From assembly GCA_023248495.1 (NCBI GenBank), contig JAHFEK010000001.1, positions 49,195 through 113,194 of the forward strand: a DNA stretch of 64,000 nt, read 5' to 3'. The notes beneath the pieces are model-generated. The model had not been told where the DNA came from. It did no database searches and worked only from the letters and a program-made list of their open reading frames with translations. The first letter of the stretch is position 1, and each line of letters starts with the position of its first letter. The translations under genes and the position numbers were made by a program. Positions 2,785-33,141 of the stretch are shown here, one piece after another. The stretch comes from Nitrospinales bacterium (GTDB lineage Bacteria; Nitrospinota_A; UBA7883; JACRGQ01).

Positions 2785-2849
2785 GTGCGTTCAATCCTGT
2801 CGCACAATCGGACCGGCGGGCCGATGAGGGAAGTTTTGATAATATTACT

Positions 2850-2875
2850 GGGTGCCGGGTCAAGCCCGGCATGAC
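2850..2875. repeat. Hairpin repeat family A copy (GGGTGCCGGGTCAAGCCCGGCATGAC)
   Basis: The stem gccggg/cccggc has loop tcaag. The same unit recurs at 32579, 62038 (inverted), 62485 and 62529 (variant). Confidence 0.7.
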
Positions 2876-2893
2876 ATCATAAATAAATTTGGT

Positions 2894-28449: not shown

Positions 28450-29193
28450 ATGGAATGCCTCATCGTCTTCGCCAAGGCTCCGGTGGCGGGACAGGTGAAG
28501 ACGAGGCTGGCGGCAACCGTGCCGCTTTTGCCTGAAGAAGCTTGCGCGCTCTATGAAGCGTTCCTCAACGACGTCCTCCAATGCGCCGCCAACAGCCGCG
28601 CCGACAAAGTCTTTCTGCATTACACTCCCGCCTCCGCGGCGCAACAGATGGCCGGCATCGCGCAAAAATATTTCGCCGCCGGACGTCTCGTCATGATGCC
28701 GCAGGGGGAGGGGACTTTTGCCGAACGCATCGCCGCCTCCTTCGCCACGGCGGAAAAGATGGGGGCCACGCGGCTGGTGATGATCGGCAGCGACAGCCCC
28801 CACCTGCAAAGCGAAATATTGGATGCCGCTTTTATCACGCTGCACGGCAATGTCGCGGCGCTCGGCCCCTCCGGCGAAGGGGGTCTGTACCTCATCGGCT
28901 TGCGCGATGACATCCGGCCCGATTGGAAAAAGGTGTTTGGCGGCGGCGCGGAGCTGGTGAACCTCTGCCGCGAGATCGTGCGCCTTGGCGGCATCGTGAA
29001 TGTACTGGAAGAACTCACCGATGTGGATGTCGCAACCGATCTGGTCACGCTCGCCGCGCTGGTTGAAACAATGTCGTTGGCGGAGCGGCGGGGGGAGTTT
29101 CCCCACTGTACGGCGGACGCGTTGAAACGGCTGAAATTGACCATTGGCCGCAGCGGCGGCACCCGTGATAAAGTTTTAACACGAGATGGGTAA
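28450..29193 (+). CDS. DUF2064-family (TIGR04282-like) nucleotidyl/glycosyl-transferase-fold protein
   Basis: The N-terminus '[19 protein letters not shown]' and 'IGSDSPHL' are typical of DUF2064. The gene starts 2 nt after the alaS stop. Confidence 0.65.
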
Positions 29194-29878
29194 AAAAGCG
29201 GTGGTGCTCCTTTCCGGCGGCGCGGATAGCGCCACGGCGCTGGCCTGCGCCAAGCGGGACGGTTTCGAACCGTACGCGCTCACCATCGATTACGGGCAGC
29301 GCCACCGCGCCGAATTGGCGATGGCGCAAAAACAGGCGGCCCGCTTCGGCGCCAAACGGCTGCTGCTGAACGCCGACCTGCGGCCCATCGGCGGCTCGGC
29401 CCTCACCGCCGATATCGATGTTCCATCGGGGCGTTCGGCGGGGGAGATGGCGGACGGCATACCGGTCACCTACGTTCCCGCGCGCAACACGATTTTTCTC
29501 TCGCTCGCGCTCGGCTGGGCCGAAAGTCTTGGCGCGGGCGATATCTACATCGGTGTCAACGCGCTGGACTACAGCGGGTATCCCGACTGCCGCCCGGAGT
29601 ATATAGAGGCATTTGAGGCCATGGCGCGGCTGGCGACCAAGATGGGGGTGGAAGGGAAGACGGCGATAAAAATCCACACGCCGTTGATCGGCCTGACCAA
29701 GGCGGAAATATTCAGGCTGGGGCATTCGCTCGGCGTCGATTTCAGCCTGACGCACAGTTGCTATTCTCCCGCGCCGGACGGCAAAGCGTGCGGCCGTTGC
29801 GATAGCTGCCTGATACGCCTCAAAGGGTTCAAAGAGGCGGGCATTGATGACCCGCTCGATTACGCGGTGCGGAAATGA
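29186..29878 (+). CDS. queC: 7-cyano-7-deazaguanine synthase
   Basis: It has the PP-loop '[12 protein letters not shown]', 'YGQRH', 'VPARN' and the zinc site 'CGRCDSC'. Confidence 0.9.
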
Positions 29879-30669
29879 TAGGCGTCCTGCTCACCAGTAC
29901 CTGCTGGTATGAGGGGGTCACGAAAGAGGTTTTCGCCGCGCGCGTGGAAGAATTGGTGACTTGCATCGCCGGCGTCAAACAACATATCCGCCAGCCGTAT
30001 GAACTGATAATCGCCGACAACTCGCCGCCAGACAAAATTCCTACCGAGAAGATTATGGGGTTTTGCCCGGAGCGGACGCTCTTTTTGCGCTGTACCGTCA
30101 ATCCCGGCAAGAACGCGGGGGAGGCCGCGCTGGTGCGCGACGGGCTGCACCTTTCGCATGCGCGCGGGCACAGCCATTGTTTCAAGCTCACCGGGCGGTA
30201 TTTCATCGACGGCGATTTTATGATTGACGACGGCATTGCCGCGCTGGAAAAAAGCGGGCGGAAGATTTTGGCAAAGCTTTTGGGAAAACCGATGCGCGAG
30301 TCGAAAGATGCCGTTGGTCACCCGCTATATGCGCAAAATAAAGATAACGGCAACTACCTGATGGGGGTCGCCACGCAGTGCTTCATCACCGATCCCGCGT
30401 GGATCGTGCAAAGGGGGGCGTTCCAAAAAGAGTTTCTCTGCCGCGAGATACCCTGGGTGAATTACGAGCAGACGTTTTGGCATTGCCTCGATCACGCGCA
30501 GATACTCCACTGGCCACGCCTGCCCATCGGCGGCTTTGTGGGGAACCGGGAGATGGGGATACCGGTTCAACTGCTGCTGCAAGGCGCGGGGAACGCGCAG
30601 TTTGAAAGGTTCGCCTCGCCGGCGGACATTCCCGCCGTCGATATCTCATCGTTGTTGGAAGGGCGATAA
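29875..30669 (+). CDS. Hypothetical protein, possibly a divergent GT-A-fold enzyme
   Basis: It overlaps queC by 4 nt (ATGA). '[11 protein letters not shown]' and '[15 protein letters not shown]' weakly recall GT2 motifs. There is no confident family assignment. Confidence 0.5.
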
Positions 30670-31341
30670 ATGCCGACGCCGCCATGCCGGGTATGCAACG
30701 GGGCGGCGGCGGTTTTTTACAAGGATGTCCGCACGTTCCACCGCTGTGGCAACTGCTCGCTGATTTTTACCGGCGAGATCGCCCCGCCGCCGGAACAGGA
30801 GAAACACTACAAGGCGCAGTGGGGCAATCAGCAGGCGGAATTTTGGAAAGGACAGGCGGATGCGATATTACAAATCATCCGCCAATATCACGAGCCGCGC
30901 CGCATCCTCGATTTCGGCGCGGGCAGCGGCGCGCTTACCGACGAGCTTCGCAAGCGGGGACTGGACTGCACGCCGCTGGAACCGATGATTCACGGGTTCT
31001 TGAAAGATCAAAAGTATCCCCATAAGTTTGACGCGATTGTCGGCGTGGAGGTCATCGAGCACCTGCCGAATCTTTGGGAAGAACTGCGCGGGATGGAAAA
31101 AGTGCTCGCCCCCGGCGGCGTCATGCTTTTCACCACGCTCTTAACGGAGGCTTTTATCAACGCTCCCGATGCCGCCGCGCAATTCAAAGCGTGGTGGTAT
31201 AAGGACGACCAGACGCATGTTACGTTCTTCGGCTACCGCTCGCTGGAAGTGTTGGGCGATATCGCCAGCTACGATGTGGACGTCATTCTCGACAAGGTGA
31301 TCGTCTTCAGGAAAAAGGGCACACACCTGTTCGTGGCGTAG
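30670..31341 (+). CDS. Class I SAM-dependent methyltransferase with N-terminal zinc ribbon
   Basis: It has four cysteines ('CRVCNG...CGNCS'), the SAM motif I 'ILDFGAGSGALT', and 'VGVEVIEHL'. The ATG immediately follows the upstream stop. Confidence 0.75.
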   Translation: MPTPPCRVCNGAAAVFYKDVRTFHRCGNCSLIFTGEIAPPPEQEKHYKAQWGNQQAEFWKGQADAILQIIRQYHEPRRILDFGAGSGALTDELRKRGLDCTPLEPMIHGFLKDQKYPHKFDAIVGVEVIEHLPNLWEELRGMEKVLAPGGVMLFTTLLTEAFINAPDAAAQFKAWWYKDDQTHVTFFGYRSLEVLGDIASYDVDVILDKVIVFRKKGTHLFVA

Positions 31342-31411: not shown

Positions 31412-32485
31412 CTAGCAGTTATCTAGATCGAATTCCTTCCAAATGTCAGGCCAGTCTTTTTTCAGTTTGGCCTTCCCTTGCTCGCTACAATAAAAATAGT
31501 TAGTTACATAATTGCTTTTCACAAAACAAAATGCAAATTGTGCAAGCTCAGCCTGTTGAATAAAGCTCACAAGCGTTTGGCAGAAAATAAAATCGGTTTT
31601 TTGAATACAGGCCAGAACTTGCTCAAAAGATGCACCTTTTGGGCCGGGCAATCTATTGTAGCGGTCAGAAGGGACAACGCACTCTTTGTCATCTATATAA
31701 TCTAAGGCATAAAAGTAAAACGCCATGATGCAATAGATTTCTAAGGAACTACCTCCCATGGATATTTTGATTGCATGGCGTTTTGGGAAACTTAAAGCGC
31801 AGGCCATAAAATAAGCCGCGAATTGGGTAAGTTTTACTTCTTCCTTCTTCTCGATGACTTTTGGGGCGAAAATGGCGGGTATTTTGTTATTCAAAAAAGG
31901 TGCTTCTTTGATCAATTGATGTACGGTAATTGTCTCATTGTGTTTTGCGACTCCCTGATATTCTTTGAAAAGCGCCATGTATGGTTCGCGTTGTTTTAGC
32001 TCGTCATGAGCCGATTCTGATAGAAGTATTTGGCCGCCATCCGCAAAATTCATTATTCTTTGGGCGGTATTGATTCCGGTGCCGGCAAGGTTATTATTGC
32101 CATTAATGTCGATGACCAAATTATCTTTATTTCGGGAAATTCCTATCCTGACATTAAATTTACGTTGGGTGTTTTCAGTTATAGAGTTATGTGCCATCTT
32201 TAATTCTAAAATATGCAAGGCAACTTTAACTGCTATATCGTAAGGGTGGTTAACGTTTAGGAGCGCGATGCAGATACCATCGCCGGTCGGGAAGAACAAC
32301 CGTTCAGTTTCTTTGATCTTGTTATCTTCGATGCTTTTTTTAACTATCTGATTAAGGGCGCTAATAATGTCCGTTTGAGCTTCAACGCTTCGATTATGGG
32401 TAAATCGAACAACATCCAAGAAAATGTATTCGACGTGTTCTGTTATATATTCAGTCATAAACGTAATAATATCCGCCTTATTCAT
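31412..32485 (-). CDS. Class III nucleotidyl (adenylate/guanylate-type) cyclase domain protein with an unrecognised ~150-aa C-terminal domain
   Basis: The cyclase motifs are in order: 'IFLDVVRFT' (metal Asp), 'FPTGDGICIAL' (second Asp), 'VRIGIS', 'GTGINTAQRIMNFADGGQILLSE' (Asn/Arg). The start is taken at Met40 (32485), where the AT-rich composition begins. The ORF extension to 32602 is read through a repeat. Confidence 0.7.
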   Translation of the reverse strand: MNKADIITFMTEYITEHVEYIFLDVVRFTHNRSVEAQTDIISALNQIVKKSIEDNKIKETERLFFPTGDGICIALLNVNHPYDIAVKVALHILELKMAHNSITENTQRKFNVRIGISRNKDNLVIDINGNNNLAGTGINTAQRIMNFADGGQILLSESAHDELKQREPYMALFKEYQGVAKHNETITVHQLIKEAPFLNNKIPAIFAPKVIEKKEEVKLTQFAAYFMACALSFPKRHAIKISMGGSSLEIYCIMAFYFYALDYIDDKECVVPSDRYNRLPGPKGASFEQVLACIQKTDFIFCQTLVSFIQQAELAQFAFCFVKSNYVTNYFYCSEQGKAKLKKDWPDIWKEFDLDNC

Positions 32486-32578
32486 TTTTCGCCAGTAATT
32501 TTGGTGGTGGGTGTTGGTGGCGGGCGGTGCTTGCATGAATGACGCCTCAAGATAGAAGAGAGTTTTGAAATTATTTCT

Positions 32579-32605
32579 GGGTGCCGGGTCTTGGCCCGGC
32601 ACGAC
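32579..32605. repeat. Hairpin repeat family A copy (GGGTGCCGGGTCTTGGCCCGGCACGAC)
   Basis: It has the same gccggg/cccggc stem and GGGTGC head as 2850-2875. It lies between the DUF2283 gene and the cyclase gene. Confidence 0.7.
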
Positions 32606-32623
32606 AGAAAAAGGGAATTGGCG

Positions 32624-32836
32624 TTAATCCACCACCAATTCGACGGGGAATGATTTATCAATGCCTATTGTTTTGCTGACGAACAGTTTTTCGATGCCGA
32701 TAACTTTGCCATCGCTCCGTTTTTTCAGGACGATCCCTTCGCCCGCCTCTTCGCAGGTGACTTCCAGCGCGGGGTCGCCGAACCATATGTCCATGCTGTC
32801 CGACTCCTTGTGGTAGTGCACTCTTACTTTTTCCAT
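32624..32836 (-). CDS. DUF2283-family small protein (putative antitoxin-like partner)
   Basis: This 70-aa protein reads 'VHYHKESDSMDIWFGD...GIVLKKRSDGKVIGIEKLF', which fits the DUF2283 pattern (YD.e.D.l.i.f...G.ivGiEil). Confidence 0.65.
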   Translation of the reverse strand: MEKVRVHYHKESDSMDIWFGDPALEVTCEEAGEGIVLKKRSDGKVIGIEKLFVSKTIGIDKSFPVELVVD

Positions 32837-33141
32837 ACCACATCACCTTCCTTTATCTTGTCCACGGGATAGGCCGTTATCACAAAACCGGTTATGCCCT
32901 GTTGTTTTACCACCACACAATATCGCTTGTCGAACTGCGCATAGTAAAGAAACACCTCATTGTCACTTCTGCTTTGCCTCACTTCCGTTGGGTTTGTCAG
33001 CGCCGCGCGGACAATTGCTTCCTTACCGTTCATTATAGGGTGTTTTGTTGTTATTAGGTATTGCCAATACTCCTCGGTGGTCCGAACGGTAATGCCTAAA
33101 GGGGTTTGTACAGCGAAGAGTTCATTTCCTTTTTGCATCAA
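32824..33141 (-). CDS. Hypothetical small protein, putative toxin partner (DUF4258-like context)
   Basis: This 105-aa ORF overlaps the DUF2283 gene by 13 nt. It ends in a beta-rich 'YCVVVKQQGITGFVITAYPV'. The family assignment is tentative. Confidence 0.5.
   Translation of the reverse strand: MMQKGNELFAVQTPLGITVRTTEEYWQYLITTKHPIMNGKEAIVRAALTNPTEVRQSRSDNEVFLYYAQFDKRYCVVVKQQGITGFVITAYPVDKIKEGDVVWKK

Follow-up and report, generated by a model that had tools for sequence, protein, structure and literature searches.

A horizontally exchanged class III nucleotidyl cyclase with a previously undescribed C-terminal domain: a candidate sensor-cyclase module with a possible role in biological conflict

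What is the function of a single AT-rich gene that fuses a class III nucleotidyl cyclase to an unrecognised C-terminal domain (CTD), and does it represent, as an initial sequence-only reading proposed, a Pycsar-like or otherwise novel one-protein defence system? The gene is located within the window, by which we mean the whole 64-kb stretch of DNA that was analysed (56.9% G+C), and its features are listed in Table 1. The coding sequence has a G+C content of 39.2% and a GC3 of 0.41, compared with 57.5-63.3% G+C and a GC3 of 0.72-0.82 for the five flanking genes, and the low-G+C block extends from ~31,400 to ~32,490, which agrees with the compositional switch that had been placed at Met40 and at the stop codon. 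Hence the gene is sharply AT-rich, as first described, and its horizontal acquisition is upheld. The mechanical open reading frame of 396 aa (31412..32602, minus strand, from a GTG, with Met40 at 32485) also exists as described, but its codons 1-39 are noncoding and cross a REP-like hairpin element, and a 100% identical match to the window protein (P0001) has 357 aa. The true start is ambiguous between 32485 (357 aa), 32458 (348 aa), which gives the family N-terminus MxExxT and is also where the closest homologue begins, and 32535 (374 aa), which has the best Shine-Dalgarno sequence of the three (GAGG). The possibility of a pseudogene was rejected, as the frame is intact, all of the catalytic residues are kept and the deviations from the consensus are common to the closest homologue. 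Att-like repeats, direct or inverted, were sought around the islet with short, chance-like matches as the only result, and a scan for sigma-70 promoters and terminators performed no better than on shuffled sequence. The REP-like element recurs at positions 2832-2876 of the window and in a related contig.

Table 1. Positions of the cyclase gene, its domains and the adjacent upstream elements in the window
Feature	Coordinates	Strand	Description
Cyclase-CTD protein CDS	31412..32485	-	357 aa from ATG at 32485; stop codon 31412-31414
Class III nucleotidyl cyclase domain	31910..32446	-	Residues ~14-192; indicated by PF00211, profile vs PDB, AlphaFold2, Foldseek and conservation
Conserved linker	31829..31909	-	Residues ~193-219, 'LNxxxPxxF'; P203 invariant, F206 94%
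CTD, previously undescribed	31415..31828	-	Residues ~220-357 (~140 aa); high-confidence model
REP-like hairpin element	32561..32606	-	GTGCCGGG-N6-CCCGGCAC plus tail; upstream intergenic region, noncoding
Small-ORF pair	32624..33141	-	DUF2283 (32624-32836) and 105-aa ORF (32824-33141); 13-nt overlap

A sister genome (L093) has the same lolE-methyltransferase locus, with flanking proteins 86-93% identical to those of the window. The cyclase encoded there is 65% identical to that of the window (76% in the cyclase domain and 52% in the CTD) and the two alleles differ greatly in composition, with a GC3 of 0.77 in the sister and 0.41 in the window and G+C contents of 56 and 39%, respectively. The two alleles at this one locus provide a clean, naturally occurring case of a gene replaced in situ by a foreign homologue. 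An exact-sequence look-up of the LolE-like protein of the window returned nothing.

Sequence and structural model both indicate that the N-terminal domain is a catalytically competent class III nucleotidyl cyclase. Its match to PF00211 (residues 15-169, E=5.7e-9) passes the gathering score (36.3 vs 21.9 bits), the family profile matches cyclases in the PDB at E-values down to 4.6e-7, and the AlphaFold2 model (pLDDT 93.2) has the cyclase homology domain fold, for which Foldseek retrieves solved class III cyclases (3et6, 5oyh, 4wp8, 1wc1 and others) at E ~1e-10 with TM-scores of 0.68-0.83, normalised to the target. The metal-binding Asp pair corresponds to D24 and D69, the Asn/Arg pair to Asn139 and Arg143, and K181 and H182 also lie within the domain. 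Motif conservation was judged on a family alignment of 63 sequences, across which D24, D69 and R143 are invariant, while N139 is kept in the window protein and is a Ser in some family members. The sequence-only reading had claimed the full class III motif series in order with its catalytic residues intact, and all of the motifs that it quoted are present and map to invariant or nearly invariant columns, with D24 in FLDVV, P66-T67-G68-D69-G70, R113 in RIGI, and N139/R143 in NTAQR. The clade also has invariants of its own, namely RSVEAQ (32-37), PTGDG (66-70), D121, D126, N128 and N132. The canonical purine-specifying pair (Lys/Asp for ATP, Glu/Cys for GTP) is absent, with a hydrophobic residue and a conserved Asn in its place. 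Asn132 (at least 90% conserved) aligns with the Cys566/Asp position of RhGC, and the Lys/Glu position is hydrophobic in the cyclase family, an assignment that is less certain as the alignment is gapped there. Because the purine-selecting pair is replaced, the product of the cyclase is not predictable.

The CTD is a new helical domain that looks non-enzymatic and evolves faster than the cyclase to which it is attached. The confident model (pLDDT 92.2, pTM 0.85) consists of four helices (221-236, 245-268, 287-295 and 299-320), a beta hairpin (321-333) and two short helices. That the C-terminal region matched nothing recognisable in the initial reading is borne out by searches with both the single sequence and 41 homologues, which had no match in Pfam, NCBIfam or PADLOC, by a CTD profile that gave only a chance match among PDB sequences (E=0.64), and by Foldseek searches of the model against PDB and BFVD, where the best E-values were 2.2 and 1.3, respectively, with TM-scores below 0.35 normalised to the query. 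As neither PDB nor BFVD yielded a relative, the modelled structure may be a new fold. The AGS-C sensor domain of the Pycsar-2 type was likewise not found, no Pfam family matching the CTD or its 41 homologues at E<=1, a result that assumes that the AGS-C model is in the library. Since a word-indexed search with the CTD profile gave three proteins only, an exhaustive profile search was used, and this identified 369 homologues among 1.84e9 representatives. In all 369 the domain is at residues ~190-350 or the sequence is a fragment, and this cyclase is the sole fusion partner of the CTD. Pairwise identity averages 33% for the CTD and 55% for the cyclase, and the CTD value is the lower one in 99.9% of 1953 pairs. 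The conserved CTD columns are hydrophobic except for D262, S263 and Q290, with no catalytic-looking set. A transmembrane or pore-forming CTD was rejected, as the helices are amphipathic on reading the family consensus (AYYxAHAIKNR, LLxxLAxDS).

The same cyclase is not restricted to this one partner, as the linker that joins it to the variable C-terminal position also precedes TIR, HEAT and periplasmic-binding-protein domains in sister proteins. Members of the clade, which comprises ~950 loci, share RSVEAQ, PTGDG-C and NxDNLVxDING..N.AG.GIN.A.R.M followed by a 'GLNxxxP' linker, and the window protein fits this pattern (alignments A1 and A4). Those with other C-termini or none (A4) are 41-51% identical to the window cyclase domain and the TIR fusions are 49-53% identical. 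Besides TIR (P0265, P0280 and P0296), the modules in the CTD position are Peripla_BP_4, HEAT, unknown domains, or nothing at all, and we infer a modular clade in which the cyclase is constant, the linker is conserved and the C-terminal module can be exchanged. The genes that adjoin the TIR fusions encode pentapeptide-TIR proteins, a TIR-only protein, a STAND-like ATPase, DndB, and a Gp49/HTH pair. The alternative C-terminal domains of four sister proteins (L050, L059, L080 and L088) are unrelated to the CTD by hhalign and gave nothing against PDB sequences. In L088-L092 a C-terminal RxxxR...[D/N]xSxxG motif resembles PilZ by eye, and there is no Pfam match.

Relatives are found in 94 of 185,579 species genomes, scattered over more than 12 bacterial phyla and the DPANN archaea, and none was present in the viral contigs searched. 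Current annotations of the members are limited to 'adenylate/guanylate cyclase domain-containing' or 'hypothetical'. The gene is solo, with no neighbour conserved across 81 family loci and no canonical effector adjacent in the window, so the description as a single-gene unit holds. A Pfam census of the 149 ORFs nearest to 46 of the loci, for which there was no matched control, yielded mainly metabolic and housekeeping functions, together with two HicB proteins and about a dozen matches to PADLOC models, several of them generic, and the contexts on long contigs are also metabolic. No defence-island signal is evident from this census, as the nearest neighbours are mostly housekeeping genes. On some contigs the neighbour is a transposase, an integrase with RM and Rep genes, or a PIN gene. 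In Melioribacteraceae and Woesearchaeota the family gene is in conserved housekeeping synteny. Pycsar adjacency is seen at one of the 81 loci (L082), where a bona fide PycTM-PycC operon is followed after 18 nt, in the same orientation, by a fused family member that carries a 1-nt frameshift; a Crp-family regulator is located 2.8 kb upstream.

We propose that the gene encodes a self-contained, horizontally exchanged sensor-cyclase module that is probably conflict-related, a tentative reading to which we assign a probability of about 0.4; a defence role is possible but unproven. Biological conflict, in the form of phage or mobile-element sensing, is the function that we consider most likely for the family because its TIR-fused members occur in immune-type gene arrays, an allele has been replaced at the same locus, and the distribution is rare and patchy. 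Class III cyclases need head-to-tail dimerisation to form their two active sites. The CTD would serve as the input, a sensor or regulator that binds some ligand or protein, and could control this dimerisation and so switch on cNMP synthesis. A sensor fits the CTD better than an effector because it is the fast-evolving part of the protein. An unlinked receptor might sense the resulting cNMP burst in trans, or the burst might itself be harmful through NTP drain. Since the gene has neither a dedicated effector nor a cNMP receptor to go with it, this output step is conjecture.

Several observations count against a role in conflict, including the lack of an evident defence-island signal among mostly metabolic and housekeeping neighbours, housekeeping synteny in Melioribacteraceae and Woesearchaeota, the absence of a copy from viral contigs, a Pycsar adjacency that amounts to a single locus with a frameshifted copy, and sister architectures (periplasmic-binding-protein domain, PilZ-like motif) that look like ordinary signal transduction. 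Nearly as likely as a conflict module is an ordinary signalling cyclase, a mobile accessory gene in which the CTD would be a novel regulatory or ligand-binding domain and the cNMP would be read by resident receptors of the CRP/CNB type. The mostly housekeeping and metabolic neighbours, the stable synteny in the two lineages, and the sensor domain and PilZ-like motifs of the sisters, which are typical of signal transduction, all favour such an enzyme, as do the far better fit of the Pfam class III profile than of the PycC profiles and the Crp-family regulator near the L082 copy. On the other hand, a housekeeping regulator would not usually have a 65%-identical allele of very different GC3 at the same locus of a sister genome, the family is extremely rare, with a patchy spread over phyla and domains, its TIR-fused siblings are in multi-TIR arrays, and one member directly follows a Pycsar operon. 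Moreover, most bacterial signalling cyclases have the reverse of the present order of N-terminal cyclase and C-terminal variable module.

A bolder form of the conflict reading, which we regard as unlikely, is that of a complete one-gene immune system. Here the CTD would recognise a product of a phage or mobile element and bring about dimerisation of the cyclase, the ensuing flood of an unusual cNMP or drain of NTP would be the antiviral effector with no need of a dedicated receptor, and the C-terminal modules of the clade would make up a repertoire of triggers for one constant output enzyme.

It is quite improbable that the protein is a one-protein variant of Pycsar, in which the cyclase would make cCMP or cUMP and the fused CTD would act as the effector, killing the cell or arresting its growth. 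Consistent with such a variant are the single-gene unit with no adjoining effector, the siblings that carry TIR, a known effector type, in the CTD position, and weak matches to PycC profiles at E ~2e-3. As judged by profile, however, the window cyclase is not a PycC, since its best PADLOC PycC score (E=2.1e-3, 15.7 bits, partial) compares with E=5.8e-53 and 177.6 bits for the true PycC of the operon at L082, and hhalign of the clade profile against true PycC gives a probability of 7.5%, so that 'Pycsar-like' is not supported. The CTD in turn does not resemble an effector, as nearly every conserved position in it is hydrophobic and there is no conserved polar or catalytic constellation, it is all-alpha with a hairpin and has neither transmembrane character nor a cNMP-binding fold, it is never joined to other partners as known effector modules are, and its position is held in sister proteins by HEAT or periplasmic-binding-protein domains as well as TIR; its rapid evolution, too, favours a sensor. 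That the DUF2283/105-aa pair serves the cyclase as effector or partner in a three-gene system is most improbable, for although the pair adjoins the cyclase on the same strand, has atypical G+C and includes a weak PADLOC PDC-M04B match (105-aa ORF, E=0.006), the idea is refuted because the closest homologue lacks the pair at the identical, syntenic locus and neither this pair nor any other neighbour is conserved across the 81 loci, and the pair is a separate insertion rather than a conserved partner, set apart by a terminator-like hairpin and the REP-like element and forming a second block of intermediate composition (45-50% G+C vs 39% for the cyclase) unlike the flanks. Hence, of the one-protein defence candidate as originally put forward, the intact cyclase, the unrecognised CTD and the solo, acquired gene survive, and PycC membership, the CTD as effector and the effector pair do not.

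Our analysis defines an uncharacterised family of about 370 clusters at 50% identity and reveals a modular cyclase clade in which TIR, HEAT repeats or a ligand-binding domain replace the new CTD at one position. If the family is immune, solo sensor-cyclases would join the two-gene Pycsar and Pucsar systems as a further form of cNMP-based defence, and if it is not, the CTD would add to cNMP signalling a new input domain, linked to an unpredicted nucleotide specificity. In either case, two alleles of such different composition at a locus with flanks ~90% identical offer a natural case of in-situ foreign-homologue replacement.

How does the window protein compare with known systems? Its best matches in sequence and structure are canonical signalling class III cyclases (RhGC 5oyh/6sir, Ma1120, CyaC, Cya2 and CyaB), with which it has in common the metal Asp pair, the Asn/Arg transition-state pair and the C-terminal Lys. 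It differs from them in the replaced purine-selecting positions (Lys/Asp or Glu/Cys), in the extra invariants RSVEAQ, D121, D126 and N128, and in a regulatory module that is C-terminal and new. With PycC of Pycsar it shares the class III fold, the two metal Asp residues, and the nature of a stand-alone, horizontally mobile gene. The specificity residues reported for PycC (F100/R142/Q144 in EaPycC and Y50/D94/R97 in BcPycC; PMC11224242) are, however, absent, and the residues at -4 and -2 from the second metal Asp of the window cyclase are hydrophobic and an invariant Thr, respectively. Pycsar also differs in its adjacent cNMP-responsive effector, PycTM or PycTIR, and no gene for such an effector, whether TM or CNBD-TIR, adjoins the cyclase in the window, whose family has instead a C-terminal domain of its own. 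Comparable in architecture are the immune-associated cNMP cyclases fused to STAND, TPR, EAD or TIR modules ('immune clade 1'; Pucsar preprint 10.64898/2026.08.12.744502) and the conflict systems of Kaur et al. (2020, PMC7159879), among them 'System 4', in which the N-terminal domain is constant and the C-terminal one has about 50 alternatives. As in these, the enzymatic domain of the window clade is N-terminal and constant and its C-terminal module can be exchanged, and its cyclase-TIR siblings are located among pentapeptide-TIR and STAND-like genes, but EACC1, VMAP, vWA and STAND partner genes are all lacking in the window family and its CTD is not among the modules described for the immune-associated systems. 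A further analogy, with no claim of homology, is to DSR2 and CapRel. The former consists of SIR2 with a HEAT-like sensor and the latter of a toxin with a C-terminal sensor. Their enzymes are unrelated to the cyclase, but they too are solo genes in which an N-terminal enzymatic output is joined to a fast-evolving C-terminal sensing module.

We propose that the C-terminal domain (CTD) of this protein would be an input module gating dimerization of the cyclase, in a family that may be conflict-related and whose output would act in trans or by nucleotide drain, a tentative reading to which we give a probability of about 0.4. Judged from its residues and fold, the N-terminal half is an intact class III cyclase. 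Residues 15–169 match Pfam PF00211 (36.3 bits against a gathering score of 21.9), solved class III cyclases are recovered with a profile built from 63 homologues (guanylyl cyclase RhGC, 5oyh, E = 4.6e-7), and the AlphaFold2 model (pLDDT 93.2) superposes on class III cyclases in Foldseek (E ∼1e-10, TM 0.68–0.83 normalized to the target). The cyclase motif series that had been read from the sequence alone is correct because D24, D69, R113, and R143 do not vary in the family alignment and the window protein carries N139. The mechanical ORF reported at 31412–32602 on the minus strand also exists, with Met40 at 32485, and its codons 1–39 are non-coding and run across a REP-like hairpin element; all three candidate ATGs are in frame (see table). 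This intergenic element (∼45 nt; TGTC(A/G)TGCCGGGC...GACCCGGCACCCAG.AATA.T.TCAAAAC) gives rise to spurious ORF extensions such as '...PGQDPAPR...'.

The CTD is new, non-catalytic-looking, fast-evolving, and exclusive to this cyclase. Modelled alone (residues ∼220–357; pLDDT 92.2, pTM 0.85), it forms four helices, a beta hairpin, and two short helices, and its description as unrecognised held up: the window sequence and 41 homologues gave no matches in Pfam, NCBIfam, or PADLOC, and none was found among PDB sequences, PDB structures (best E 2.2), or BFVD (best E 1.3). When 1.84 billion representatives were searched exhaustively with a profile, 369 CTD proteins were returned, all of them fragments or ∼345-aa proteins with the CTD at about residues 190–350, and hence the CTD exists only fused to the cyclase. 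Mean pairwise identity is 33% in the CTD versus 55% in the cyclase (lower in 99.9% of pairs), and its conserved columns are hydrophobic except D262, S263, and Q290, a pattern that speaks against an enzymatic effector and favours a probable binding or regulatory domain.

At least 502 full-length homologues (36–65% identity) were found, and 94 of 185,579 species genomes contain a relative of the cyclase, among them Acidobacteriota, Chloroflexota, Melioribacteraceae, Planctomycetota, Verrucomicrobiota, a Cyanobium, candidate phyla, and DPANN archaea; a search of viral contigs found none. Four genomic copies (L047, L048, L075, L079) have broken reading frames and are pseudogenes or MAG assembly errors. 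The cyclase-CTD gene is a solo gene: when ORFs within 6 kb were clustered all against all for 81 loci, no neighbour proved conserved save for synteny among close genomes. Some surroundings are plainly metabolic and others include a transposase, an integrase/Rep/Eco57I island, or a PIN gene. Housekeeping families predominate among the 149 ORFs that lie closest to the gene at 46 loci, which also include two HicB proteins and about a dozen PADLOC hits, some generic, and there is therefore no clear defence-island signal. The housekeeping surroundings and the sister proteins with signalling-type architectures make an ordinary signalling cyclase, equipped with a new regulatory domain, possible and almost as likely as the conflict reading. 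In two Woesearchaeota MAGs (L052, L060), stand-alone clade cyclases lie in conserved synteny directly downstream of a HerA/DUF87-type ATPase, which neighbour clustering places in three loci, and an HtpX-like protease gene, identified by eye, lies downstream on the opposite strand in L052 and L065.

The wider clade is modular, TIR fusions included, and all forms share the invariant RSVEAQ, PTGDG-C, and NxDNLVxDING motifs and a 'GLNxxxP' linker. The cyclase occurs alone (∼215–245 aa) or with a Peripla_BP_4 domain (L069), HEAT repeats (L084), a weak DUF7436-like region (L050), or unrecognised domains (L059; L080, L086, L087; L088–L092). The 570–605-aa proteins of Pyrinomonadaceae MAGs (L088, L089, L091, L092) have an unrecognised middle region of ∼250 aa and C-terminal RRxYxRQ and [D/N]xSRxG motifs; for L088–L092 together the pattern is RxxxR...[D/N]xSxxG, which resembles a PilZ c-di-GMP site by eye and is undetected by Pfam. 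In two genomes this type coexists with the CTD type. Among 946 proteins found with the cyclase-domain profile at E ≤ 1e-10 are cyclase-TIR fusions (P0265, P0280, P0296) with TIR exactly at the CTD position, which keep company with pentapeptide-TIR genes and a TIR-only gene as well as a STAND-like ATPase, DndB, and a Gp49/HTH pair. The genes arrayed on L094 and L095 have a C-terminal TIR in common and different N-termini (pentapeptide repeats, the cyclase, or nothing), and a STAND-like ATPase, DndB, and a Gp49/HTH_37 pair adjoin these arrays. The earlier suggestion of a fused effector, or one-protein Pycsar system, is improbable; its Pycsar-like identity is not supported, as by profile comparison the gene is not a PycC, the Pycsar cyclase.

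Horizontal exchange of the cyclase-CTD gene is evident at this locus. Its G+C content is 39.2% (GC3 0.41), compared with 57.5–63.3% (GC3 0.72–0.82) in the five neighbouring genes and 56.9% in the whole window. The closest homologue, P0002, lies on a sister-genome contig (L093) whose gene order (LolE-like, cyclase, methyltransferase, 263-aa ORF, QueC, DUF2064) matches the window. Flanking proteins are 86–93% and flanking DNA 86–91% identical, the whole cyclase proteins 65% (cyclase domain 76%, CTD 52%), and cyclase G+C is 39% in the window versus 56% in L093 (GC3 0.41 versus 0.77). The two proteins share subclade-specific peculiarities and are mutual nearest relatives (next homologue 44% identical), and the simplest reading would be that one allele was replaced in situ by a foreign homologue. 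A tightly packed, probably co-transcribed block next to the gene is kept in L093. The adjacent DUF2283/105-aa ORF pair (G+C 45–50%) is absent there and is therefore a separate insertion that the cyclase does not need; it looks like a toxin-antitoxin-like pair, the 70-aa DUF2283 ORF matching Pfam at E = 1.7e-8 and the 105-aa ORF matching nothing in Pfam and, weakly, PDC-M04B in PADLOC (E = 0.006). That this pair is the effector or partner of the cyclase is hardly credible, since L093 has the cyclase at the same locus without it.

Features of the cyclase-CTD locus and of related loci
Feature	Location	Strand	Remarks
Start candidate ATG	window 32485	-	chosen in public gene call P0001
Start candidate ATG	window 32458	-	yields family N-terminus MxExxT; closest homologue starts there
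Start candidate ATG	window 32535	-	best Shine-Dalgarno sequence
REP-like element	window 32561-32606
REP-like element	window 2832-2876
REP-like element	L093 1-47		start of related contig
DUF2283 ORF + 105-aa ORF	window 32624-33141	-	13-nt overlap
Packed block	window 28450-31341	+	DUF2064/TIGR04282-like glycosyltransferase (E = 1.8e-34, under NCBIfam cut-off), QueC, 264-aa ORF without family match, Zn-ribbon SAM methyltransferase
PycTM, PycC, cyclase-CTD member	L082 8646-10995	co-oriented	gaps 2 and 18 nt
TIR gene array	L094 2116-7254
TIR gene array	L095 1343-3854

In a Chloracidobacterium MAG (L082), a family member directly follows a bona fide pair of PycC (E = 5.8e-53) and the Pycsar transmembrane effector PycTM (E = 5.8e-26); it is fused to the CTD, with a 1-nt frameshift in the linker in the assembly. 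Further upstream is a Crp-family regulator, 1.5 kb from PycTM and 2.8 kb from the family member. The purine-selecting residues of the window cyclase are non-canonical, in that Asn132 (≥90% conserved) falls, in the alignment, on RhGC's Cys/Asp specificity position and the Lys/Glu position is hydrophobic, nor are the residues reported for PycC (PMC11224242) reproduced, and the product nucleotide cannot be predicted from its residues. Public records name these proteins merely 'adenylate/guanylate cyclase domain-containing' or 'hypothetical,' and PMC7159879 and a preprint (10.64898/2026.08.12.744502) already outline immune-type cNMP cyclases whose modules are exchangeable; the available portions of both describe neither the CTD nor the cyclase-CTD family.
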